This document shows, one piece after another, positions 22,838 to 64,000 of a stretch of 64,000 nucleotides of DNA. Position numbers and translations under genes: made by a program. Below the pieces are notes generated by a model. It saw nothing but the letters and a program-made list of their open reading frames with translations, was not told the DNA's origin and did no database searches. Each line of letters opens with the position of its first letter. The stretch's first letter is position 1. Source of the stretch: a virus (taxonomy: Duplodnaviria > Heunggongvirae > Uroviricota > Caudoviricetes); the IMG/VR virus record IMGVR_UViG_2571042390_000001. The stretch is one strand, 5' to 3'.

Positions 22838-23413
22838 ATGTTAATGGCGAACGATAACGCATATACAGAAGAAGATCTCATTTTGAGTGACTTCATAGGG
22901 AAGCGTGAACGCTGGACCCAAAAGCGAGAGGAAATTTACGCCTCATTAGTTCGCAAAGGCGTCAATATCGAAACCGCACAGAGCGGCGATATGACAGTGG
23001 TAAGCGTTGGATTGCACGGTGTAAGCGTGTCAGCAATCAATCATGAGCCATACGTTGCGTTATCCGAGTCAATGGTAAGGTTAGTTAAGTTCCTGAAATA
23101 CACAGAAGCGAATAATGTAATCATTGGCAAAAAGAATATCCCTTTTTCCTCGGCTTTTTACTGGATGATGAAAGGGCTTGATGCCCGGCGGACATCATGG
23201 CCCAAAGGGAGCTATATATCGATGTTCCGTGGCAGTATTGGCAGCAAAGAAAAGCTCTTCGAATTCTTGCCGGAAGAGGCATTCGATATTGTGGAAGGGT
23301 GCGATGTGATGGTGATGCCTCGCCTGGTAATGATGAATGGGGATTTACAGGCGCAGACAGACTGGTTTGCAACTGGTGTGGATATTATCGCGACTGACTG
23401 GGAGGCTTTCTGA
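22838..23413 (+). CDS. Protein with C-terminal DUF2829 (Tad2-family)-like domain (191 aa)
   Basis: C-terminal AFYWMMKGLDARRTSW ... DIIATDWEAF matches the DUF2829 pattern. Confidence 0.5.
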   Translation: MLMANDNAYTEEDLILSDFIGKRERWTQKREEIYASLVRKGVNIETAQSGDMTVVSVGLHGVSVSAINHEPYVALSESMVRLVKFLKYTEANNVIIGKKNIPFSSAFYWMMKGLDARRTSWPKGSYISMFRGSIGSKEKLFEFLPEEAFDIVEGCDVMVMPRLVMMNGDLQAQTDWFATGVDIIATDWEAF

Positions 23414-23805
23414 TGTACGGGACTACCAAATTAAGCACTCAACAGGCCACCAATATGGAGTGGTCTATCGCTAACTGTAAGATCGAGTCATGCAATGCCA
23501 CGCGTACTGATGTGGGCCATAAAAGCACTATAACAGGCTATCTAGTAATGACCACCAGGGGGATAAGGGTTAGATTTCGCTGGAAAGCAGAGCAAGTAAC
23601 CCCATTCAGAGAGCCATCAATGCCGCTGCAGGTTGAGCAGGATTATCTATGTTTACCAGAAATAGATGGAGGAATGCTGGTGGAGTCTGATGGTAGTAAG
23701 GCTGATTTTGAAGCCAATTTGAAGCTGGCACAGGCCGTAATCAATAGTTATCGCGGACAGTGGATCGCAAAAGTGAAACATGTTGTTCGTTTGTCTCGCT
23801 GGTAG
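23413..23805 (+). CDS. Hypothetical protein (130 aa)
   Basis: Start overlaps upstream stop. Confidence 0.4.
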   Translation: MYGTTKLSTQQATNMEWSIANCKIESCNATRTDVGHKSTITGYLVMTTRGIRVRFRWKAEQVTPFREPSMPLQVEQDYLCLPEIDGGMLVESDGSKADFEANLKLAQAVINSYRGQWIAKVKHVVRLSRW

Positions 23806-23826
23806 CATTAGATATTTAGTATTAAT

Positions 23827-23835
23827 TTTCTAATA
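23827..23835. promoter_or_regulatory. Operator-like motif variant (TTTCTAATA) upstream of lpa-like gene
   Basis: P1 lpa is a known C1-controlled gene; same position here. Confidence 0.4.
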
Positions 23836-23913
23836 CATTCATCTTTTTACCAGTCTATACAGTTTTAACATTCTCATTATCATCCCCTCGGTCATTTCCT
23901 GCCCGGGGGATTA

Positions 23914-24306
23914 ATGGAACAAATCAGCAGCGCAGAAATTGCGGATATCATGATCAGGGCTGACTGCTATCTGACAGTCACTGAAATTACCACTCTCGCC
24001 AAAGAAAAATACCCTCATCTCCATGTTTCACGAGTAAGTGTAACTAACATCATTCGTCATTTTGTTCGTTCAAGCAGGGCAATCTGTGAGCTTGATGATC
24101 GTGTTTACCCACGAAAATACTGGTTGCATGGCCTGAACGGATATCAGTTCAAGGTGCGTGGGCGAACCCCTGAATATGGCAGTTTACTGGTTAAAAACTG
24201 TAGCAGGAAATCAGTCGAACAGGCGCGAAAAGAGCAACGAGAGCTGGTGGACATGGCGAATAAGCTGTGGAATGCCGCCGTTAAAAAGCGTGGTGTTGCT
24301 TTATGA
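23914..24306 (+). CDS. Hypothetical protein; possible late-promoter activator (Lpa-like) by synteny only
   Basis: Immediately upstream of pacA-like/pacB-like genes, as lpa is in P1; operator-like motif upstream. Confidence 0.4.
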   Translation: MEQISSAEIADIMIRADCYLTVTEITTLAKEKYPHLHVSRVSVTNIIRHFVRSSRAICELDDRVYPRKYWLHGLNGYQFKVRGRTPEYGSLLVKNCSRKSVEQARKEQRELVDMANKLWNAAVKKRGVAL

Positions 24307-25667
24307 GTCTGGTTAATTGGGAGGAGCACCGCGCCCGCTTTATAGCGTTGCGTGAAGAAAAAGGGATCACTGTAAAGGAATACTGTGAGGAGCATGGCCT
24401 TAGCTTCAATACAGCCAGAAAGCATCTCAATATGAAAAAAAATGAGGTGCGGTCGCAGGTAAAGACAACAAAAAAAAGCACCAAATCACCTGAAAAAAAA
24501 CGGGCGGGAAGAGCAACAAAAAAGCTGGAAGAGGGTGCAGAAAAAACAAAATTTACAGAAATTGACAATTCGCAGGGCGCAGGTTCTTTCCGAAGTATGC
24601 CGAGAAAGAAAACTTCGGATCATGAAAATAATTCAAATAATAACAATGAGATAAAAGAATCTGTCAGGAGATCATTGCGCGAAAAAATGGCGAAAATGAT
24701 CCCCGAAGAAGATAAAAACGCCCCAAAAATTGAGGGATCTTCTGCAATGATCCCTGACGGTGCTGTGCAGCGTGCCACATTGCCAACTACGAATGTGGCT
24801 CGCGATATGATGAAGAACGGCGCAGAAGAACACCTGCGGTTAGCAATTCAAATGGCGCAAGAGCGCGCACTTCAGTATCAAAGCATTGTTGATCAGGAGG
24901 CCGAACGTCTACAGGCGGAAATAGACGCCTTGGGCGATAAAGAGCCAGAAGGAATGCACCCTGGGCAGCGCCTTCTCGGTCTAATCAGTGACGCGGCCTA
25001 CTACATGAATGATTTTATCAGTAGGTTGGCAGCTATATATCAGTCCGAACAAAAGCTGCGACAGGGGGATGAAAAGCTTCGTCAGAGCGCTCGCCAGCAA
25101 GCATTCAAAGAGGCTGAGGCCAGAGAAAAACTCGAATTAGCACGCCTACAGGCCGAACAGCGTGGCAAAGAGATTGAATATCGCATTGGCGCTGACGCAC
25201 GCGCAGCCAGAGTTATCGCCGCCGCTATACGTATGCGTGAGCGCGAGGAACTGGATGATATCGGTGTTGCTGAATACATCGAGCGCCAGGGTGTCAGCGT
25301 CCCGGCTATCCTCGCGGCGCGCGCGGCGAAAGCTATCACTCTTCTCGAACCACCTGTTTCTGACGTCAATGATGTTGATGATGAACAGCTGGACAAAGAG
25401 GCAAGGGAGTTTGCAACGCTTCAGGCTAACCATCCGCAATGGCTGGCAGAGCGCCGGGCGGATGTGGCAACCATTGTTGAAGAATTGGGGTGCGGAGATT
25501 ACGACCGCAATGGCGAGCGTAAAGCTGGAGAATTCGAGGCCAACGACGAAGAGCTGGATATTGACCCTTCGGCAACGGCTGAAATTTACGGTGATTATGA
25601 TGCATCTGATGCAGGGTATGACGCCGGAGATGATGATATCGCGATAGAACCGCCGGAGGATGATTAA
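24303..25667 (+). CDS. pacA: Terminase small subunit, PacA-like
   Basis: N-terminal HTH-like region, charged/acidic C-terminus, stop overlaps start of the large subunit; internal GATC cluster. Confidence 0.55.
   Translation: MSLVNWEEHRARFIALREEKGITVKEYCEEHGLSFNTARKHLNMKKNEVRSQVKTTKKSTKSPEKKRAGRATKKLEEGAEKTKFTEIDNSQGAGSFRSMPRKKTSDHENNSNNNNEIKESVRRSLREKMAKMIPEEDKNAPKIEGSSAMIPDGAVQRATLPTTNVARDMMKNGAEEHLRLAIQMAQERALQYQSIVDQEAERLQAEIDALGDKEPEGMHPGQRLLGLISDAAYYMNDFISRLAAIYQSEQKLRQGDEKLRQSARQQAFKEAEAREKLELARLQAEQRGKEIEYRIGADARAARVIAAAIRMREREELDDIGVAEYIERQGVSVPAILAARAAKAITLLEPPVSDVNDVDDEQLDKEAREFATLQANHPQWLAERRADVATIVEELGCGDYDRNGERKAGEFEANDEELDIDPSATAEIYGDYDASDAGYDAGDDDIAIEPPEDD
24610..24760. other. 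Candidate pac site (cluster of GATC-containing hexamers inside pacA-like gene)
   Basis: Five GATC sites within about 135 bp, including repeated AATGATCCC. Confidence 0.3.
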
Positions 25668-27175
25668 TGGCTGGCGGGCGCAAGATTAAATGCGTCACCA
25701 GCGATCCACGCTGGCGCGATATGGTAATCAAATACCGCTACAACTTTACCCAGGCTGTAGTCGATATTTTTGGGATGTTCCCCTCCCACCAGCAGCAGCA
25801 GATCATTCAGTCAGTGCAGGAAACGGGGAGTAGGACGACCGTCACGTCCGGACACGGAACGGGGAAGTCGTCCCTTACCGCGATGTTGCTGTTGATTTTT
25901 ATGATCCTGTTCCCCGATGCCCGTGTCATCATTGTTGCTAACAAGATAGGCCAGGTAAAAACAGGCGTATTCAAATACGTTAAACAGTATTGGGCGAATG
26001 CAGTTAAGCGTCATGGGTGGTTGCAGACCTATTTTGTCCTCTCTGACACCATGTTTTATGAGCGCTCCCGTAAGGGGATTTGGGAAGTTCTCTGCAAAGG
26101 TTATCGACTCGGCAACGAAGAAGCGCTGGCGGGGGAACACGCGGCACATTTGCTTCTAATTCTGGATGAAGCATCTGGTATATCTGATAAGGCGATCGGC
26201 GTAATGACCGGTGCTCTTACTGAAGAAGATAACCGGATGTTGATGCTATCCCAGCCAACAAGGCCAAGTGGTTATTTCTACGATTCGCACCATTCTCGAG
26301 CAAAAACCCCAGACAACCCGAAAGGGATCTGGACAGCAATTGTTCTTAACTCGGAAGAATCACCGTTCGTCACACCACAATTCATCAAGGAGAAGCTTCT
26401 GGAATATGGTGGGCGCGATTCTATTGAGTACATGGTCAAGGTGCTTGGTCAGTTCCCACGAGAAATTAACGGCTATTTGCTTGGTCGTGATGAATGCGAT
26501 CGCTCTGCTCGCCGCAAGGTGTTGTTGGAGAAAAACTGGGGATGGGTGGCAACGGCTGACGTTGGTAATGGGCGAGATAAGTCGGTCCTCAACATCTGCA
26601 AGGTATCAGGTCACAGGGATAAGCGGCGCGTTGTTAACTTTAAGGTAATGGAGATGCCTGGCACTATGGACCCATTGGCCTTTGCTGACTTCATATATAA
26701 CGAATGTACGCCGGAAAAATACCCGAATATAACAATCGCGGTTGATGCTGATGGTTTTGGTTCTGATACGTGTGCGCAGTTGGTGCGTCGTGGTGCGAAC
26801 CCGGTACGTATTCGGTGGGGAAAACCCATGTTTGCGAACAAAGACAGGGAGCGATTTGTTAATCAGCGTGCCTACGCAAATATTATGGCGCGAGATGCCA
26901 TAAAGTCAGGGCGTATGCGGATAGACAGTGACCCTAAAACGGCAGAGCAAGCGTCAAAAATCCCCTTTTTACTGAATGAAGAAGGGAAAATGGCGATGAT
27001 GCGCAAAGAGCACATGCGGCAAAAGCTAAACATCAAATCGCCTGACCGATGGGATACCTACTGCTTCACTATGCTGGTGGACTATGTGCCTGCTAATGAA
27101 GATATTGGTGCCGAAATGGCAACTTTCCGAGATCAGGTTCTGGCGGATATCGAAATGCCGGATCTGGATATATAA
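25667..27175 (+). CDS. pacB: Terminase large subunit, PacB-like
   Basis: Walker A SGHGTGKS and Walker B LLILDEASGISD. Confidence 0.8.
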   Translation: MAGGRKIKCVTSDPRWRDMVIKYRYNFTQAVVDIFGMFPSHQQQQIIQSVQETGSRTTVTSGHGTGKSSLTAMLLLIFMILFPDARVIIVANKIGQVKTGVFKYVKQYWANAVKRHGWLQTYFVLSDTMFYERSRKGIWEVLCKGYRLGNEEALAGEHAAHLLLILDEASGISDKAIGVMTGALTEEDNRMLMLSQPTRPSGYFYDSHHSRAKTPDNPKGIWTAIVLNSEESPFVTPQFIKEKLLEYGGRDSIEYMVKVLGQFPREINGYLLGRDECDRSARRKVLLEKNWGWVATADVGNGRDKSVLNICKVSGHRDKRRVVNFKVMEMPGTMDPLAFADFIYNECTPEKYPNITIAVDADGFGSDTCAQLVRRGANPVRIRWGKPMFANKDRERFVNQRAYANIMARDAIKSGRMRIDSDPKTAEQASKIPFLLNEEGKMAMMRKEHMRQKLNIKSPDRWDTYCFTMLVDYVPANEDIGAEMATFRDQVLADIEMPDLDI

Positions 27176-27202: not shown

Positions 27203-28240
27203 TTACCAGAGCTTCGCGGCGTACTGCGTTTGGGGGAATGTGTATCCGTAACGTTCTTCGATTGCTTTGCCGTATTTTTTACGAGCTTCATTCAGTTTTA
27301 TGCCGGTCAGGTCGTCTCCAGAGGCCATCATTACGTCTAACAATTCCAGATCCATTTTATCCAGCCTTGCCATTGCTTCACGTGATGTACGTATCTTACG
27401 CTCAATGATATGGCGAATAGCCGGATCGGCATCCTCCAGCATCTTAGCGGATTTCTGCTTAAGGCTTTCATTGCGAATATCGATGTTCCTTAAGATGTAC
27501 GACTTCGCAACGTAGCTTGGCTGGTGTTTTTCCAGGTCACGAACACGATATAAGTTAAAATCGCCGAGAAGGCTGCAAGGTACCGATTCGACGCCAGAAT
27601 AAATTGTAATGCTCCGGCGCTCACCAACATTATTGACAACGGGGATCGTTGTCTTCGGTAGTCTTGCGAAAACCAATGCGCCATGTGCGCCAACTCTAAA
27701 GCGAGAAAGGGCATTGCTGCCTTCGATGTTTGTTGTCAGCACAACATCTGTATATGCCTCTTTACGCGCCCGGTAGATCTCGCCTTCAGGCTCAGCTTCA
27801 AAGAAGCGCTGTTCTTCTTCAAGAGCACCTACGATTTGAGAAAAAACCCTATTTTTCAGGCTTTTCTTTATGATTTTGTCGTATTTTTTGAGCAATTGTT
27901 CACGTGTAAATGTACGTGTTGTTGTAGCGCTTTGCACAACAACATGCGTGCTTTGATTGGTGTCCTCAATGATGAATGGGATCGGAGAATATACAGACTC
28001 AACAATGTTCGACGCTTTGCCGTCGGCATCGCGGCACATGTCAACGAAGGCTTTCCATTCAGCAAGACATTTTTCAGCTTCTTCTAATATGTTTTGGTCA
28101 TGCGTTAATGCAACATGGCGGAATTCCTCGCCAGCATAACTGGTATCATGGAAAACAGAGTTTGCGACCACCAGCTCTTTCCACCGTTCAGCGGTTTGCA
28201 GGAACCGTTTGTACTCTTTCTCGATCGACTTCTTACTCAT
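27203..28240 (-). CDS. Hypothetical protein (345 aa); candidate C1-like repressor by position
   Basis: Sits between pacB-like and lox-cre as c1 does in P1; operator-like motif directly upstream; no sequence-level confirmation. Confidence 0.4.
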   Translation of the reverse strand: MSKKSIEKEYKRFLQTAERWKELVVANSVFHDTSYAGEEFRHVALTHDQNILEEAEKCLAEWKAFVDMCRDADGKASNIVESVYSPIPFIIEDTNQSTHVVVQSATTTRTFTREQLLKKYDKIIKKSLKNRVFSQIVGALEEEQRFFEAEPEGEIYRARKEAYTDVVLTTNIEGSNALSRFRVGAHGALVFARLPKTTIPVVNNVGERRSITIYSGVESVPCSLLGDFNLYRVRDLEKHQPSYVAKSYILRNIDIRNESLKQKSAKMLEDADPAIRHIIERKIRTSREAMARLDKMDLELLDVMMASGDDLTGIKLNEARKKYGKAIEERYGYTFPQTQYAAKLW

Positions 28241-28449: not shown

Positions 28450-28483
28450 ATAACTTTAAATAATTGGCATTATTTAAAGTTAG
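28450..28483. other. lox-like recombination site (13-bp inverted repeats around an 8-bp asymmetric spacer)
   Basis: ATAACTTTAAATA-ATTGGCAT-TATTTAAAGTTAG, arms 12/13 complementary; same outline as loxP (ATAACTTCGTATA-N8-TATACGAAGTTAT); about 150 bp upstream of cre homolog. Confidence 0.6.
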
Positions 28484-28634: not shown

Positions 28635-29663
28635 ATGAGTGAATTAATTATCTCTGGCAGCTCCGGTGGTTTTCTGCGCAACATTGGCAAAGAGTACCAG
28701 GAGGCCGCAGAAAACTTTATGCGGTTCATGAATGACCAGGGGGCTTATGCGCCGAATACTCTGCGCGACCTCCGGTTGGTGTTTCATTCATGGGCGCGCT
28801 GGTGTCACGCTCGCCAGCTTGCCTGGTTTCCGATCTCACCAGAAATGGCCCGCGAGTATTTTCTTCAGCTGCATGATGCCGATCTGGCTTCGACCACCAT
28901 TGATAAGCACTACGCCATGCTGAATATGCTGCTTTCGCATTGTGGCCTTCCGCCACTTTCGGATGATAAAAGTGTTTCTCTGGCTATGCGGCGCATCCGG
29001 CGCGAAGCGGCAACTGAAAAAGGCGAACGAACAGGCCAGGCTATACCGCTTCGGTGGGACGATCTGAAACTGCTCGACGTCCTGTTGTCCAGGTCAGAAC
29101 GGCTGGTGGACCTGCGCAACCGGGCTTTTCTCTTTGTTGCATACAATACGCTGATGCGTATGTCGGAAATCTCGCGTATTCGTGTAGGAGATCTGGACCA
29201 AACAGGTGACACTGTCACGCTACATATTTCACACACGAAGACAATAACGACCGCCGCCGGGCTTGATAAGGTGCTTTCCCGTCGCACTACCGCTGTGCTG
29301 AATGACTGGCTGGATGTTTCCGGGCTTCGCGAACATCCTGACGCAGTGCTGCTCCCGCCGATACACCGTAGCAATAAGGCCAGGATCACGACAACGCCCC
29401 TTACTGCACCTGCAATGGAGAAAATATTCAGCGACGCCTGGGTGTTGCTGAATAAAAGAGATGCTACGCCAAACAAAGGAAGATACCGGACGTGGACCGG
29501 GCATAGTGCACGCGTCGGGGCCGCTATTGATATGGCTGAAAAGCAGGTGTCTATGGTGGAGATCATGCAGGAAGGAACCTGGAAGAAACCGGAAACACTT
29601 ATGCGGTATCTTCGCCGTGGCGGCGTGTCTGTGGGGGCTAATAGCCGCCTGATGGATTTGTAA
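28635..29663 (+). CDS. cre: Cre-like tyrosine recombinase
   Basis: WTGHSARVGAAIDMAEKQVSMVEIMQEGTWKKPETLMRYLR parallels the Cre C-terminal catalytic region (WSGHSARVGAARDMARAGVSIPEIMQAGGWTNVNIVMNYIR). Confidence 0.85.
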   Translation: MSELIISGSSGGFLRNIGKEYQEAAENFMRFMNDQGAYAPNTLRDLRLVFHSWARWCHARQLAWFPISPEMAREYFLQLHDADLASTTIDKHYAMLNMLLSHCGLPPLSDDKSVSLAMRRIRREAATEKGERTGQAIPLRWDDLKLLDVLLSRSERLVDLRNRAFLFVAYNTLMRMSEISRIRVGDLDQTGDTVTLHISHTKTITTAAGLDKVLSRRTTAVLNDWLDVSGLREHPDAVLLPPIHRSNKARITTTPLTAPAMEKIFSDAWVLLNKRDATPNKGRYRTWTGHSARVGAAIDMAEKQVSMVEIMQEGTWKKPETLMRYLRRGGVSVGANSRLMDL

Positions 29664-59714: not shown

Positions 59715-60620
59715 ATGAGATCAGTCGCTTTCAAAAATATCTTCATCTATCGTCTTTCACGCGAAGTTAGCTGGGATACTGCAGAAGTAAATGCAGCCCT
59801 TAGCAAGTTTGTGTTTACCCCATGCGGTTCTCAGGATATGGCTAAAGCTGGTTGGACCTCCGTTCTTGGTGACAACCTCACACATGAATACCAGGGTTTT
59901 CTGCTAATACAGCATAAGCGAGAAGAAAAAATTCTCCCCTCGCAGGTGCTCAAGGAAGAGTTGCAGAAAAAAGTCCTGAAACTCGAAGAAGAGCAAGCCC
60001 GCAAGCTGAAGAAAACGGAAAGAGACAGTCTTAAAGATGAAGTCCTGCATTCACTTTTGCCTCGCGCGTTCACGAGAAAATCACTTGCCAAAATCCTGAT
60101 CGACCGCAGCAACCATCTGGTATTCGTTGAGGCAAGCAGCGCCAAAAAGGCAGAGGACCAGCTGGCTTTATTGCGAAAATCGCTCGGCAGCCTGCCTGTC
60201 ATTCCATTCACACCACGCGAACCGCTGGAAATTACAATGACCGAGTGGTTTAAAAGCGGCTTCCCTGCCGGATTTACAGCAGGTGAAGACGCCACATTAA
60301 AGGGTCTGCTCGATAATGGTGGTGCCGTTCGCTGCAACAAAGTTGATCTACAGTCCGACGAGATTATGTCTCACATTGAGGCGGGGAAAGTAGCTACGAC
60401 CGTTGCAATTAACTGGATGGAACGCGCGTCGTTCAGAGTCAACGATGATATGAGTATCAAAGCCCTGACATTCTGTGATGATCTCTATGACCAGAATGAC
60501 GATATCGACCGGGAGGATGTAGCACAACGATTTGATGCTGATTTCGTGCTCTTTACGGGCGAATTATCTGCACTGTTTAACGCGCTGGTGGAGGCCATTG
60601 GCGGTGAAGCAGAACGTTAA
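59715..60620 (+). CDS. hrdC: RdgC homolog (P1 hrdC-like recombination-associated protein)
   Basis: N-terminal [12 protein letters not shown] ... [14 protein letters not shown] matches the RdgC family; precedes dmt as in P1. Confidence 0.7.
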
Positions 60621-62760
60621 CCTTCGATATGGTTCAGTTTGCAGTGGAATTGAAGCCGCGAGCATTGCCTGGGAACCGTTGGGTATGCGTCCGGCGTGGT
60701 TTGCTGAAATTGAGCCTTTTCCATCTGCCGTTCTTGCGCACCGCTGGCCTCATATCGCCAACCTTGGCGATATGACAAAACTTGCCAAAAAAGTCCTGGC
60801 TGGGGAAATCGAATCCCCTGATGTGCTCGTCGGGGGAACACCTTGTCAGGCATTCAGTATCGCGGGATTACGTGGTGGGCTTGATGATGAGCGCGGCGCG
60901 CTAACTTTGAAGTATGTGGAGCTTGCAAATGCAATTGACGACAAACGGTCTGAGTCCTTCCTCAAACCGACAGTTATCGTCTGGGAAAATGTCCCAGGAG
61001 TCCTGTCATCGGCAGATAACGCCTTCGGATGTTTCCTTGCCGGATTGGCTGGAGAAGATGCACCATTTGAACCAGGTGATCGACCTGAATCAGGAAAAAG
61101 TAACGCGTTCTGGCGGTGGGATGGCAAAACCGGTTGCCATGCTCCAAAGTGGCCGCAGTGTGGTTGTATTTATGGACCGCAGCGAAAGGTGGCCTGGAGA
61201 ATACTTGATGCCCAATACTTCGGAGTGGCACAACGACGCCGACGCGTGTTTGTTGTCGCAAGTGCTCGAACAGACCTCGATCCCGCAACGGTACTTTTTG
61301 AGTTCGAAGGCGTGCGCCGGGATATTGCGCCGAGCAGAGGCGAGGGGAAGGAAGTTGCCGGAAATGTTGGAAATGGCATTAAAAGCGGGAGCCATTGGGA
61401 TAACCCTGTAAATCCTCACCCGACACTTGCCCGATCGCACAATACCGGCGGGACGGGTGCAAGCAACCAGGAGATTTTTTCACAGCGCGGAAGTGGGCTT
61501 GTCGGTGCTTACCGGATGGTAGCATTTGGTGAGTATGCGGATGATGAGGCGGCTTCCACGGTCAAGGCCAGAGATTTTAAGGATGCAACCGACCTGGCTG
61601 TTTTTGACAGTGCGAACGTCGGAGTGGCAGTACGTCGCTTAACGCCTGTCGAGTGCGAACGCCTGCAGGGCTTTCCTGACGGGCACACGTTGATCCCTAC
61701 GGAAAAGCGTAAAAAAGTTTCTTCAGATGAACTGGCATACCTTCGCAATCACTATCCAGATTTAAGCGAAGAAGAGGCCGCGATGCTTGCAGCTGACGGA
61801 CCGCGTTACAAAGCGATCGGCAACAGCATGGCAGTTCCTGTTATGCAATGGATAGGGTGTCGCATTCTTGCGACCGTAGCGGATAAACAGCAAAAAACAA
61901 TAAATACCATTACCTACACAAGAAAACTCCGGACTCCGGATGAATATGAACGCCCAATATTCAAATGGGTAGGCGGTAAATTCTCAGAGTTGCCTACAGT
62001 GCTTGAGCATCTACCACACGGCAAGCGGTTAATAGAACCATTCGTTGGTGGCGGTTCCGTATTTACGAATGCAGGATTTCGCCACAACCTGCTTAATGAT
62101 ATTAACGGTGACCTGATTAACTTCTATCAGACATTGCAGCGAGAGGGACATTCGCTCGTCACGCTGGCATATAGTTTTTTCAAAAATTACAACAACGCTG
62201 ACGCTTACCTCGAAGTGCGCGAGGCATTTAACAGAGGAAAGTATGACCAGCTACATCATGCTGCCGCCTTTTTGTACCTTAATCGGCACTGTTTTAATGG
62301 CGTAACGCGGTACAACCAAAATGGCGAGTTCAACGTGGGGTATGGCAAATACAAAGCGCCCTACTTCCCACATGCAGAGATGGAGGCATTTTTGGCTGAT
62401 GACGTACTCAAAAACACGTCCTTTGTATCAGGTGACTTTGCTGGCGTCATCGAGGCGGCTGGTGAAGGCGATGTGATTTTTTGCGATCCGCCGTATGAAC
62501 CGCTGCCGGATACAGAAGGGTTTACCAGTTATTCAGGAAATAGCTTCCGTTTCGACGAACAGAAACGGCTGGTATCTCTATTGGTGGAAGCCCACCAGCG
62601 CGGCGCTAAGGTAGTGATAACAAATAGTGGTGCGCCAAACATCCGTGAACTATATGAACGAAACGGGTTTAAAGTACATCATATGGCAGCCAGACGGTCG
62701 GTGTCCTGCAAGGCGTCAACACGTGTAGTTGCTAACGATATAATTGCAATAATGAAGTAA
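60604..62760 (+). CDS. dmt: Dmt-like bifunctional DNA methyltransferase (C5-cytosine domain fused to Dam-like N6-adenine domain)
   Basis: N-terminal [11 protein letters not shown] (motif IV) C5-MTase; C-terminal KWVGGK and DPPY Dam-type motifs; probable GTG start with GGAGG RBS. Confidence 0.8.
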
Positions 62761-62808: not shown

Positions 62809-64000
62809 TTAACCTAACTTCGCCCAGGTATCACGCAGCCCAACGGTGCGGTTAAATACCGGTTTTTCCGCCGTAGAATGGCGGCTGTCGAGGCAGAAAT
62901 AACCTTCACGCTCAAACTGGAATGCTTTACCCGCTACCGCTTCTTTCAGCGACGGTTCAGCAAAACCCTGTTTGATCACCAGCGATTCCGGGTTAATCAC
63001 CGACAGGAAATCATCCGCAGCACCTGGGTTCGGCACGCTGAACAGACGATCGTACAGGCGGATTTCAACCGGCAGCGCATGTGCCGCGCTCACCCAGTGA
63101 ATAACGCCTTTCACTTTACGACCATCTGCCGGATCTTTGCTTAAGGTGTCGGCGTCATAAGTACAGAAGATGGTGGTGATATTGCCTTCGGCATCTTTCT
63201 CCACGCGTTCAGCCTTAATGACGTAAGCATTACGCAGACGCACTTCTTTACCCAGCACCAGACGTTTGTACTGCTTGTTAGCTTCTTCGCGGAAATCGGC
63301 GCGGTCGATCCAAATCTCACCGCTAAACGGCACCTGACGGCTACCCATTTCCGGTTTGTTTGGATGGTTCGGCATGGTGACCATTTCGCCTTCGCCCTGG
63401 TAGTTTTCGATAACCAGTTTCACCGGATCGATAACCGCCATTGCGCGCGGCGCATTTTCGTTGAGATCTTCACGGATGCAGGATTCCAGCGACGCCATCT
63501 CAATGGTGTTGTCCTGCTTGGTCACGCCGATGCGTTTGCAGAACTCACGAATAGAAGCCGCAGTGTAACCACGACGACGCAGACCGGAAATGGTCGGCAT
63601 ACGCGGGTCATCCCAGCCTTCAACGTGCTTGTCGGTCACCAGCAGGTTAAGCTTACGCTTGGACATCACAGTGTATTCCAGATTCAGGCGCGAAAATTCG
63701 TACTGGCGCGGGTGAACAGGAATGGTGATGTTGTCCAGTACCCAGTCATACAGACGACGGTTGTCCTGGAACTCAAGCGTACACAGAGAGTGCGTAATAC
63801 CTTCCAGCGCATCGCTGATGCAGTGGGTGAAGTCGTACATCGGGTAGATGCACCACTTGTTGCCAGTCTGGTGATGTTCAGCAAACTTAATGCGGTACAG
63901 CACCGGGTCGCGCATCACGATAAACGGCGAAGCCATGTCGATTTTCGCACGCAGGCAGGCTTTACCTTCTTCAAAACCACCGGCACGCATTTTTTCGAAC
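62809..64000 (-). CDS. glnS: Glutaminyl-tRNA synthetase (3' portion; gene continues beyond window end)
   Basis: Near-identical to E. coli GlnRS C-terminal region as recalled ([13 protein letters not shown]); host chromosomal gene. Confidence 0.9.

Follow-up and report, generated by a model that had tools for sequence, protein, structure and literature searches.

The 64,000-nucleotide stretch of viral DNA analysed here (IMG/VR record IMGVR_UViG_2571042390_000001; hereafter, the window) can be identified as a D6-like plasmid prophage, and its pacAB genes are 99.1% identical at the nucleotide level to those of Escherichia phage D6, as is pacA alone (99.1%). The product of pacB, which directly follows pacA, is 56% identical to P1 PacB and matches phrog_2, the terminase large subunit family (E = 8e-40). 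The gene order of the D6 type, pac-pacB-c1-rox-dre, mirrors the P1 order pac-pacB-c1-lox-cre, and the rox site of the window is 3.7 kb downstream of a cluster of GATC sites that lies within pacA and is analysed below (Table 1). The initial annotation had credited the element with its own Dam-like (dmt) activity, and we found a fitting open reading frame, with a D12-class N6-adenine methylase domain of the Dam family (Pfam MethyltransfD12, E = 1.1e-55) and a C5-cytosine methylase domain (Pfam DNA_methylase, E = 6.4e-37). The homologous region of D6 is annotated as D6_63, "site-specific DNA-adenine methylase, similar to P1 dmt," and D6_64. The GenBank records of D6 have rox and cix sites annotated and pac not annotated. 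A full-text literature search for a D6 pac site returned nothing relevant, and D6 pac may have been mapped or mentioned in the D6 genome paper (Gilcrease & Casjens 2018) or in Sauer & McDermott 2004. In PLSDB, 120 plasmids carry a D6-type pacA. D6-like plasmid prophages are numerous in E. coli, Shigella, and Salmonella.

Table 1. Coordinates of genes, GATC motifs, and candidate packaging elements, numbered from the first nucleotide of the window
Feature	Coordinates	Strand	Remarks
pacA	24303..25667	+	454 aa, 1365 nt; small-terminase-like pacase subunit; ORF enclosing the GATC cluster
pacB	25667..27175	+	Large terminase / pacase B subunit; directly after pacA
rox site	28451..28482	-	Dre recombinase target; exact 32-bp match
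dmt-like bifunctional DNA methyltransferase	60532..62760	+	C5-cytosine domain and Dam-family N6-adenine domain
Maximal proposed D6-type pac region	24553..24754	+	Union of conserved elements
Conserved island TTACAgaaatTGACAA	24553..24568	+	Upstream of GATC cluster; candidate cut or accessory-protein region
Motif 1, GGATCAT	24617..24623	+	pacA +316, codons S-D-H
IHF-like sequence TAACAATGAGATA	24641..24653	+	Between motifs 1 and 2; weak candidate bending site
TGTCAG	24662..24667	+	8 nt past IHF-like sequence; candidate cut region
Motif 2, GAGATCATT	24668..24676	+	pacA +368, codons R-S
Motif 3, AAATGATCCC	24694..24703	-	Reverse complement of GGGATCATTT; pacA +396, codons K-M-I-P
Motif 4, GGGATCTTC	24734..24742	+	Weaker match; pacA +434, codons G-S
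Motif 5, AATGATCCC	24746..24754	-	Reverse complement of GGGATCATT; pacA +447, codons A-M-I-P

The gene that encloses the cluster had been called pacA-like, a description that we confirmed: its product falls in the same family as P1 PacA (phrog_1711, "terminase"; E = 2.8e-184) and aligns collinearly with it at 21% identity. By sequence comparison, this gene is a true PacA homologue. The N-terminus of the protein gave sub-threshold matches to Pfam helix-turn-helix (HTH) domains, including HTH_23 (E = 4e-4), and an AF2 model of this part contains three helices (6-19, 24-31, and 35-42) with pLDDT values of 82 to 88. When the N-terminal model was used in a Foldseek search, all matches were to HTH-type domains and none was significant. 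We predict from these data that the PacA N-terminus is a three-helix HTH-like domain. In a scan of genome contigs, the PacA alignment retrieved nothing and the PacB alignment retrieved 17 loci.

Within pacA, we found the five GATC sites in about 135 bp that the initial annotation had reported, at positions 24618, 24670, 24698, 24736, and 24749, the last of these one nucleotide from the position given for it before (24748). They occupy +316 to +450 of the 1365-nt gene, in its 5' third. The repeated sequence noted earlier is also present, as AATGATCCC at 24695-24703 and again at 24746-24754. The comparison of these sites with P1 hexamers holds in part. All five motifs are repeats that contain GATC, the Dam site, but none of the five matches the P1 hexamer TGATCA/G, that hexamer is absent from both strands of positions 24600-24760, and a counterpart of the P1 left arm is missing. 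The sole TGATCA/G in pacA, at 24890, is not conserved in relatives. The repeat of the D6 clade is instead GGATCAT(T), which, because it is asymmetric (the P1 hexamer is palindromic), has an orientation; across the cluster, the motifs are oriented + + - + -.

The five sites correspond to about 1 GATC per 27 bp, compared to a window average of 1 per 282 bp (227 sites in 64 kb). The cluster is the tightest 4-, 5-, and 6-site GATC group in the window, where the next independent five-site span is 384 bp, and no tighter one occurs in the complete D6 genome (91,159 bp). Under a uniform-placement null, five sites in 135 bp occurred somewhere in 23% of 64-kb trials and in 31% of D6-genome-size trials. 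The total number of GATC sites in the window is not enriched either (227 observed versus 252 ± 14 expected). Cluster density by itself is not significant and is weak evidence, and with probabilities of about 0.23 to 0.31, we did not build the case for a pac site on density alone. Position and extended sequence gave lower probabilities: a cluster of this kind within the first 600 bp of pacA has a p value of 0.0026, 3 of the 10 GGATCAT sites of the window fall in the cluster (p = 0.0014), and all five sites match RGATCWT, of which there are 28 in the window and which clustered likewise in 0 of 50,000 random placements.

We compared this part of pacA among five D6-clade lineages with 67 to 100% nucleotide identity and among 28 unique D6-clade sequences. 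In the segment encoding the PacA linker, 17 of 20 GATC columns are invariant among the five lineages, versus 79 of 301 other columns (p = 2e-7). All five sites are found at identical offsets in 26 of the 28 unique sequences, and there are two natural variants, each without one site. At motif 1, GGATCA is invariant in the 28 unique sequences and is missing solely in the Enterobacter hormaechei type. Motif 2 reads GACC in one IMG/VR contig, and motif 4 reads GGGATCATT in E. marmotae and is displaced in the E. hormaechei type. Motifs 3 and 5 contain runs of 10 and 9 nt, respectively, that are invariant in the five lineages, at 67 to 100% identity for motif 3. A control GATC outside the cluster, at 24891, is lost in 75%-identity relatives. 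These patterns show that the GATC motifs have been preserved at the DNA level through an otherwise diverged linker.

P1 pac, on which P1 phagemid and PAC-vector technology is based, is the textbook example of a packaging signal controlled by methylation. It is annotated within pacA at +190 to +352, with hexamers from +195 to +351 that flank an IHF site (+256) and the cut positions (+276 to +285). The site is 161 to 162 bp long, with its two arms (4 + 3 repeats) on either side of a central region of about 90 bp. In PMC10028697, its length is given as 161 bp, the repeats as seven copies of TGATCA/G, grouped into HEX4 and HEX3, and an IHF site and regulation of cleavage by methylation are described. 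The D6-type cluster resembles it in its location, in the 5' third of a homologous pacA and upstream of pacB, c1, and lox or rox, in its short, clustered, GATC-containing repeats, and in the presence of a phage-encoded Dam-family methylase in both elements. In addition, motif 3 of D6 (AAAATGATC) is homologous to a widely shared right-arm site, AAAA(T/A)GATC, that is present in nearly all PacA lineages, and the D6 type has IHF-like and TGTCAG sequences at a P1-like spacing. In contrast, the D6 type has five sites where P1 has seven, its repeat is GGATCAT(T) rather than the palindromic TGATCA/G, its sites are 13 to 52 bp apart compared to 7 to 15 bp within the P1 arms, it has no homologue of the left arm (HEX4), and the bipartite 4+3 layout appears to be lacking. 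The five sites of D6 might be divided 1+4 by the IHF-like sequence (which has two mismatches to the consensus) or 2+3 by a dyad centred near 24685.

The corresponding part of pacA also carries clustered GATC sites in all PacA lineages that we looked at (P1, Pantoea, Serratia, Xenorhabdus, Citrobacter, Leclercia, Rosenbergiella, Vibrio, and others). In about 25 further PacA lineages or species, the clusters lie between +140 and +480, with binomial p values per lineage from 0.035 to 4e-5. The unannotated pacA arrays of Pantoea, Enterobacter BRE11, Serratia, Xenorhabdus, Rosenbergiella, Citrobacter, and Leclercia have their GATC cores at +145 to +480, as in D6, but these P1-type phage-plasmids differ from D6 in having retained TGATCA and the bipartite layout, with a left arm of three to seven sites whose period, encoded by D-H/D-Q repeats, is often exactly 12 bp, and a right arm of two or three sites. 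GATC is flanked by T/T (TGATCA) in the P1-type lineages and by G/T in the D6 clade, where G stands at position -1 in 24 of 28 cases, versus 0 of 48 in P1-type lineages. The Enterobacter hormaechei p60214CZ_1 type (L009; L044 and L050 in IMG/VR) has the D6-type motif (GGGGATCATT / AATGATCC), the D6 version of a PacA helix (NTARKHL), and right-arm sites that align with D6 motifs 2 to 5. Unlike D6, it has no motif 1 and retains left-arm sites at +157, +169, and +181, which makes it look like an intermediate between P1 and D6 in architecture. A pac site embedded in the gene of the small terminase that recognises it, as proposed here for D6, is also found in P22 (gene 3), SPP1 (pacL/pacC/pacR), and Sf6, and in SPP1 there are multiple binding sites around a cut region. 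The pac sites of P22, SPP1, and Sf6 are not GATC based and are not known to be under methylation control, and at the level of sequence comparison used here, their small terminases are not homologous to PacA.

The IHF-like sequence of the window shares 10 of 13 positions with the IHF site annotated in P1, AAACAAAGAGTTA, and in the D6 clade the pattern TAACARYRAGWTA is retained, with no variation in the core AACA. It has two mismatches to WATCAANNNNTTR and is therefore only a presumptive IHF site. In P1, the IHF site is followed after 7 nt by TGTCAG, and the annotated cuts are within and just past that hexamer. The TGTCAG of the window is not conserved in 75%-identity relatives, so its resemblance to P1 may be coincidence. 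The linker has only six invariant runs of at least 4 nt, and two of them, TTACA and TGACAA, lie in the conserved island upstream of the cluster, where Thr is always encoded by ACA and Asp always by GAC. A 16-lineage PacA alignment places the IHF site of P1 and its cut positions at 24552-24576 of the window. The cut site may lie outside 24610-24760; the candidate regions for it are 24553-24576, 24654-24670, and 24675-24697.

Other sequences were considered as parts of the site and set aside. Just one nearby sequence fits the IHF consensus exactly (24876-24888, adjoining the GATC at 24891), and it was rejected as a required part because it is not conserved in relatives at 93 to 95% or 75% identity. 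In the A-rich stretch at 24435-24546, A-tract spacings of 23 to 35 bp are out of helical phase for intrinsic bending. The P1 cut-site heptamer TTGTCAG matches the clade-conserved CTGACAA on the opposite strand; for a 7-mer, such a coincidence is at about the 1% level, and we kept the match as a lead only. One isolate assembly has a contig break at pacA +320 to +329, which could be a signature of DNA ends but was not counted as one, because it is a single case beside a polymorphic stretch.

From the conservation of the motifs, a position that matches P1 pac, and GATC clusters throughout the PacA family, all of which support the candidate pac site of the initial annotation, we propose that the GATC cluster at 24617-24754 is very probably the recognition core of a D6-type pac site at which PacA and PacB start headful packaging. 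Such a site would be a relative of P1 pac with another repeat (GGATCAT, not TGATCA) and one arm fewer. By analogy with P1, the PacA N-terminal helix-turn-helix would bind the repeated GGATCAT(T) motifs late in infection, and binding or cleavage would depend on Dam methylation of the GATC cores, supplied by host Dam and by the phage's own Dmt-like enzyme. With cutting dependent on methylation, freshly replicated, under-methylated copies would be spared. The DNA would be bent, possibly via IHF or HU, and PacB would cut nearby. Packaging would presumably proceed rightward, through pacB, c1, and rox, so that the first headful would be terminally redundant with two rox sites, both of which Dre could use to circularise the DNA. 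In the D6 clade, the ancestral left arm would have been lost, with the five sites (+ + - + -) derived from the right arm.

As an alternative, the conserved GATC motifs could be a Dam/SeqA-dependent regulatory element, acting on the timing of pacA and pacB expression or sequestering new DNA, with the true pac elsewhere. The phage-encoded Dam-family methylase and the departure of the cluster from P1 pac architecture would fit such an element, and the invariance of the GATC sites shows selection on GATC-containing DNA only, not what reads it. However, a promoter and terminator scan of 23800-25800 found no sigma-70-like promoter within or near the cluster, so a Dam-regulated promoter is unsupported, and the cluster is the densest of the whole D6 genome and sits at the P1 pac position in the homologous gene. 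Moreover, the bases flanking GATC covary across lineages with the predicted third helix of PacA, its putative recognition helix, which reads NTARKHL (K40 and H41 in D6 PacA) in all GGATCA lineages versus NTARR(Y/E)L in TGATCA lineages. This covariation suggests that PacA is the reader of the motifs, and we consider a regulatory element unlikely.

It is very unlikely, in our view, that the sites are a codon by-product of protein-level constraint on the linker peptides (S-D-H, G-S, and M-I-P twice). M132-I133-P134, M149-I150-P151, S124, and D106 are invariant in a PacA linker that is otherwise variable, and since "MIP" is also invariant in the protein, part of the conservation could reflect the peptide; in P1-type lineages, repeated D-H or D-Q codons similarly encode the left arm. 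However, the GATC sites of the cluster are spread over, and retained in, all three codon phases. GATCA of motif 2 is invariant in the five lineages although its codon switches between AGA (Arg) and GGA (Gly), and GATC of motif 4 is retained in the four D6-proper lineages while its codon shifts between GGA and AGA. Before motifs 3 and 5, the residue varies (K/E/Q/A), yet AA or A stays in the DNA, with K/E/K/Q encoded before motif 3 and AA retained there. Synonymous choices are also fixed, with the Ile codon at motifs 3 and 5 being ATC in 10 of 10 cases versus a 35% baseline and the Ser codon being TCA in 5 of 5 versus 20% expected. Recoding the P1 hexamers with synonymous codons reduces phage packaging about 9-fold, and the functional unit there is therefore the DNA rather than the peptide (PMC10028697). 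Finally, a chance aggregation of GATC sites without function, which the uniform null would allow, is hardly credible and appears effectively refuted by the comparative data, given the conservation and pacA placement probabilities, the shared extended motif, and the recurrence of clusters in every PacA lineage examined.

A more far-reaching form of the pac reading, which we put forward only tentatively, is that D6 pac is re-architected and heterospecific. TGATCA would have changed to GGATCA in co-evolution with the PacA helix (NTARR[Y/E]L to NTARKHL), and the site would be one-armed, with the cut possibly outside the array, for example, at the TTACA-N5-TGACAA island. If this is true, the D6 pac and pacase would be orthogonal to those of P1, as Dre/rox from the same phage is to Cre/lox, and the bipartite layout would be dispensable for this class of pacase. 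A second natural specificity would provide an orthogonal packaging signal for phagemid delivery, paralleling Cre/lox and Dre/rox from the same two phages. It would also offer a comparative handle on how a pacase reads methylated repeats and on how many arms it needs, and a sequence signature for annotating pac in D6-like plasmid prophages.

The pacA-pacB region of the window is 99.1% identical to that of Escherichia phage D6, a plasmid prophage related to P1, and matches many E. coli plasmids at 100% identity. The initial annotation had described a pacA-like gene, and the encoded PacA is indeed collinear with P1 PacA (21% identity, common PHROG), while PacB is 56% identical to P1 PacB. We also located the Dam-like activity that it had attributed to the element, in a Dmt-like ORF (60532-62760) with a Dam-family (D12) adenine methylase domain. 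In the window, this methylase is a single 742-aa ORF on the (+) strand that joins a C5-cytosine domain to the Dam-family domain, and the same region in the D6 record is split into two CDS (D6_63 and D6_64); gene fusion, a frameshift in one of the two or differing annotation could account for this. Elsewhere, a 191-aa ORF (22838-23413, +) has a Pfam Tad2-like (Thoeris anti-defence 2) domain (E=9.5e-10), its D6 counterpart, D6_6, being annotated only as a hypothetical protein. A glutaminyl/glutamyl-tRNA synthetase-like ORF (62809-63990, -), which probably continues past the window end, is a known D6 feature, since a GlnS-like gene (D6_62) is annotated in D6.

The annotated P1 genome confirms the earlier statement that P1 pac lies within pacA. 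Elements of this kind are known from textbooks. P1 pac is 161 bp long and comprises an IHF site and seven TGATCA/G repeats (HEX4 and HEX3), its cleavage is methylation regulated, and synonymous recoding of the hexamers reduces packaging about 9-fold (PMC10028697). The D6-type GATC cluster (+316 to +450 of pacA) occupies the same low-complexity pacA linker after the N-terminal domain.

Coordinates of genes, GATC motifs and candidate cut regions in the window and of pac features in P1
Feature	Window position	Position within pacA	Remark
lpa	23914-24306		
pacA	24303-25667		
pacB	25667-27175		
c1	27203-28240		minus strand
rox	28451-28482		
dre	28635-29663		
GATC, motif 1	24618	+316	
GATC, motif 2	24670	+368	
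GATC, motif 3	24698	+396	
GATC, motif 4	24736	+434	
GATC, motif 5	24749	+447	
Candidate cut region 1	between motifs 1 and 2		TAACAATGAGATA, 8 nt, TGTCAG in window
Candidate cut region 2	24553-24568		upstream island TTACAgaaatTGACAA; DNA-level conservation in every D6-clade lineage
Candidate cut region 3	about 24685		dyad centre between motifs 2 and 3
P1 TGATCA hexamers, first group		+195, +202, +214, +229	P1 genome annotation
P1 IHF site		+256 to +268	P1 genome annotation
P1 cut positions		+276 to +285	P1 genome annotation
P1 hexamers, second group		+325, +337, +348	P1 genome annotation

A sequence scan found the five GATCs within 135 bp, compared to a mean of one per 282 bp across the window; four of the positions proposed initially were exact and the fifth was one base off, and the repeated AATGATCCC is present as described, in two copies (24695-24703 and 24746-24754). 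This is the tightest grouping of 4, 5 and 6 GATCs in the window, and the pacA cluster is also the tightest GATC grouping in the complete D6 genome (91,159 bp). With random site placement, an equally tight cluster occurred somewhere in 23% of 64-kb trials and 31% of D6-size trials, and the whole-window count revealed no overall GATC over-representation. The initial annotation had staked its reading on a GATC density different from that of the rest of the genome, a difference that is formally present but weak. Density by itself is not compelling as evidence for pac, so the case rests on other evidence.

When each site was oriented to its best match, D6-clade sites gave the consensus (G)GGATCAT(T), with G at -1 in 24 of 28 sites, A at +4 in 27 and T at +5 in 24. 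An orientation-free flank tally agreed, with G on one side of the GATC and T on the other. In contrast, P1-type lineages have T/T flanks, with G at -1 in 0 of 48 sites, and no P1-type hexamers were found inside the cluster. Because the motif is asymmetric, D6-type sites have an orientation, which runs + + - + - in each of the four D6-proper lineages; the spacings are 52 bp from site 1 to 2, 28 bp from 2 to 3 and 51 bp from 3 to 5, with site 4 placed 13 bp ahead of site 5. The N-terminal domain of PacA, weakly assigned as an HTH, has a predicted third helix at aa 35-42 (single-sequence AF2 model, pLDDT 82-88). Its sequence is NTARKHL in every lineage with GGATCA-type sites and NTARR(Y/E)L in those with TGATCA-type sites. 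Because the repeat flank covaries with this predicted helix, PacA is suggested to be the reader of the motif. A Dam/SeqA regulatory element not tied to packaging could also be proposed, but the covariation points to PacA, and no promoter-like site is present in the cluster.

Across pacA genes from PLSDB plasmids and IMG/VR contigs (nucleotide identity 100% down to 67%), 28 unique sequences belong to the D6 clade; 26 have the five GATCs at identical offsets, and the other two have one GATC>GACC change each. These two IMG/VR sequences, with pacA otherwise intact, lose motif 2 (L031, +368) or motif 3 (L046, +396); sequencing errors, prophage decay or natural hypomorphic alleles may explain them. 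When five lineages were aligned (window, E. marmotae, S. dysenteriae, E. fergusonii and E. hormaechei), 17 of 20 GATC columns were invariant versus 79 of 301 in the other linker sequence (Fisher p=2e-7), and the linker's only invariant runs of at least 4 nt were GATCA (motif 2), AAATGATCCC (motif 3), AATGATCCC (motif 5), AACA, TTACA and TGACAA. Peptide-level constraint might explain this conservation, but the codon-phase, substitution and synonymous-site data speak against it: all three codon phases are represented among the cluster GATCs, motifs 2 and 4 retain GATC through Arg/Gly codon swaps between lineages, the residue preceding motifs 3 and 5 differs (K/E/Q/A) and the adjoining bases are constant, and the Ile codon is ATC in 10/10 cases versus a 35% baseline. 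These patterns indicate that the DNA, rather than the peptide, is under constraint at the motifs. As an internal control, GATC 24891, outside the cluster, is absent from 75%-identity relatives. Chance aggregation of GATCs is excluded by the conservation.

A further motif-like site, GGGATCAC (24363-24370, GATC 24365, codons G-I-T), in the HTH-coding part of pacA, is kept in D6-proper lineages and Serratia, and coding constraint is inseparable from a DNA role there. An A-rich coding stretch (24435-24546, 44% A) encodes the Lys-rich PacA linker and has five A6-A8 tracts 23-35 bp apart with no clean helical phase.

GATC clusters are found at about +140 to +480 of pacA in every PacA lineage retrieved (P1, Candidatus Pantoea alvi, Pantoea agglomerans, Enterobacter sp. 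BRE11, Rosenbergiella, Serratia, four Xenorhabdus species, Citrobacter, Leclercia, an Acinetobacter plasmid and Vibrio diabolicus), with significant enrichment over flanking DNA in each (binomial p 0.035 to 4e-5). Most have a left arm with 3-7 sites and a right arm with 2-3 sites, the left-arm sites often being at an exact 12-bp period and encoded by D-H/D-Q repeats. In V. diabolicus, the most distant PacA relative found, two small clusters (+341 to +536) have different flanks, TTGATC and GCGATCG, which hint at a third repeat specificity.

D6 proper is without the ancestral left arm. E. hormaechei-type relatives (L009, L044 and L050; 55-57% aa identity) retain it, with GATCs at +157, +169 and +181 and two copies of GGGGATCATT; the right-arm GATCs of L009 (plasmid p60214CZ_1, locus 781-1300) are at +380, +397, +408, +435 and +471. 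In a 16-lineage alignment, this left arm is homologous to P1 HEX4, and D6 motif 3 (AAAATGATC, codons A-K-M-I) is homologous to AAAA(T/A)GATC, a right-arm site common to nearly all lineages. Thus, D6 has an expanded right arm with the left arm gone, and the E. hormaechei-type layout seems to stand midway between the pac architecture of P1 and that of D6.

The P1 counterpart of the first candidate cut region is the IHF site AAACAAAGAGTTA, 7 nt and TGTCAG, the hexamer within which P1 cuts; among D6-clade relatives, the IHF-like core is partly conserved and TGTCAG is not. In the second, TTACAgaaatTGACAA, about 50 bp 5' of motif 1, Thr is encoded only by ACA and Asp only by GAC although adjacent residues vary, and the P1 IHF and cut positions map onto window 24552-24576 in a protein-guided alignment. 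If this candidate is correct, functional pac would reach about 65 bp left of the interval initially proposed. We rejected an exact IHF consensus, TATCAAAGCATTG (24876-24888, immediately before GATC 24891), as an essential component, since it is not conserved: relatives with 93-95% identity have TACCAA... there, and the sequence has diverged in those with 75%. Two contigs from a single isolate genome, L047 (IMGVR_UViG_2537562191_000026, at its contig end) and L055 (IMGVR_UViG_2537562191_000021, from locus position 1), break within pacA +320 to +329, just past motif 1, with the overlap ATGAAAATAA; this single case could reflect misassembly of a polymorphic stretch or be a DNA-end trace.

DNA-level GATC conservation, a position as in P1 pac and family-wide clusters support the candidate pac reading, and we consider it quite likely that the cluster is the pac site of the D6-type phage. 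In GenBank, the D6 records carry annotations for rox and cix but none for pac, and we found no description of a D6 pac site in the searchable literature; an earlier description may exist. Sequence comparison argues for something beyond a plain new member, with an altered asymmetric repeat, covariation with the PacA helix and left-arm loss with an Enterobacter intermediate. The P1/D6 phage pair is the source of Cre/lox and Dre/rox, and the D6 cluster may in practice provide a packaging signal orthogonal to P1 pac.
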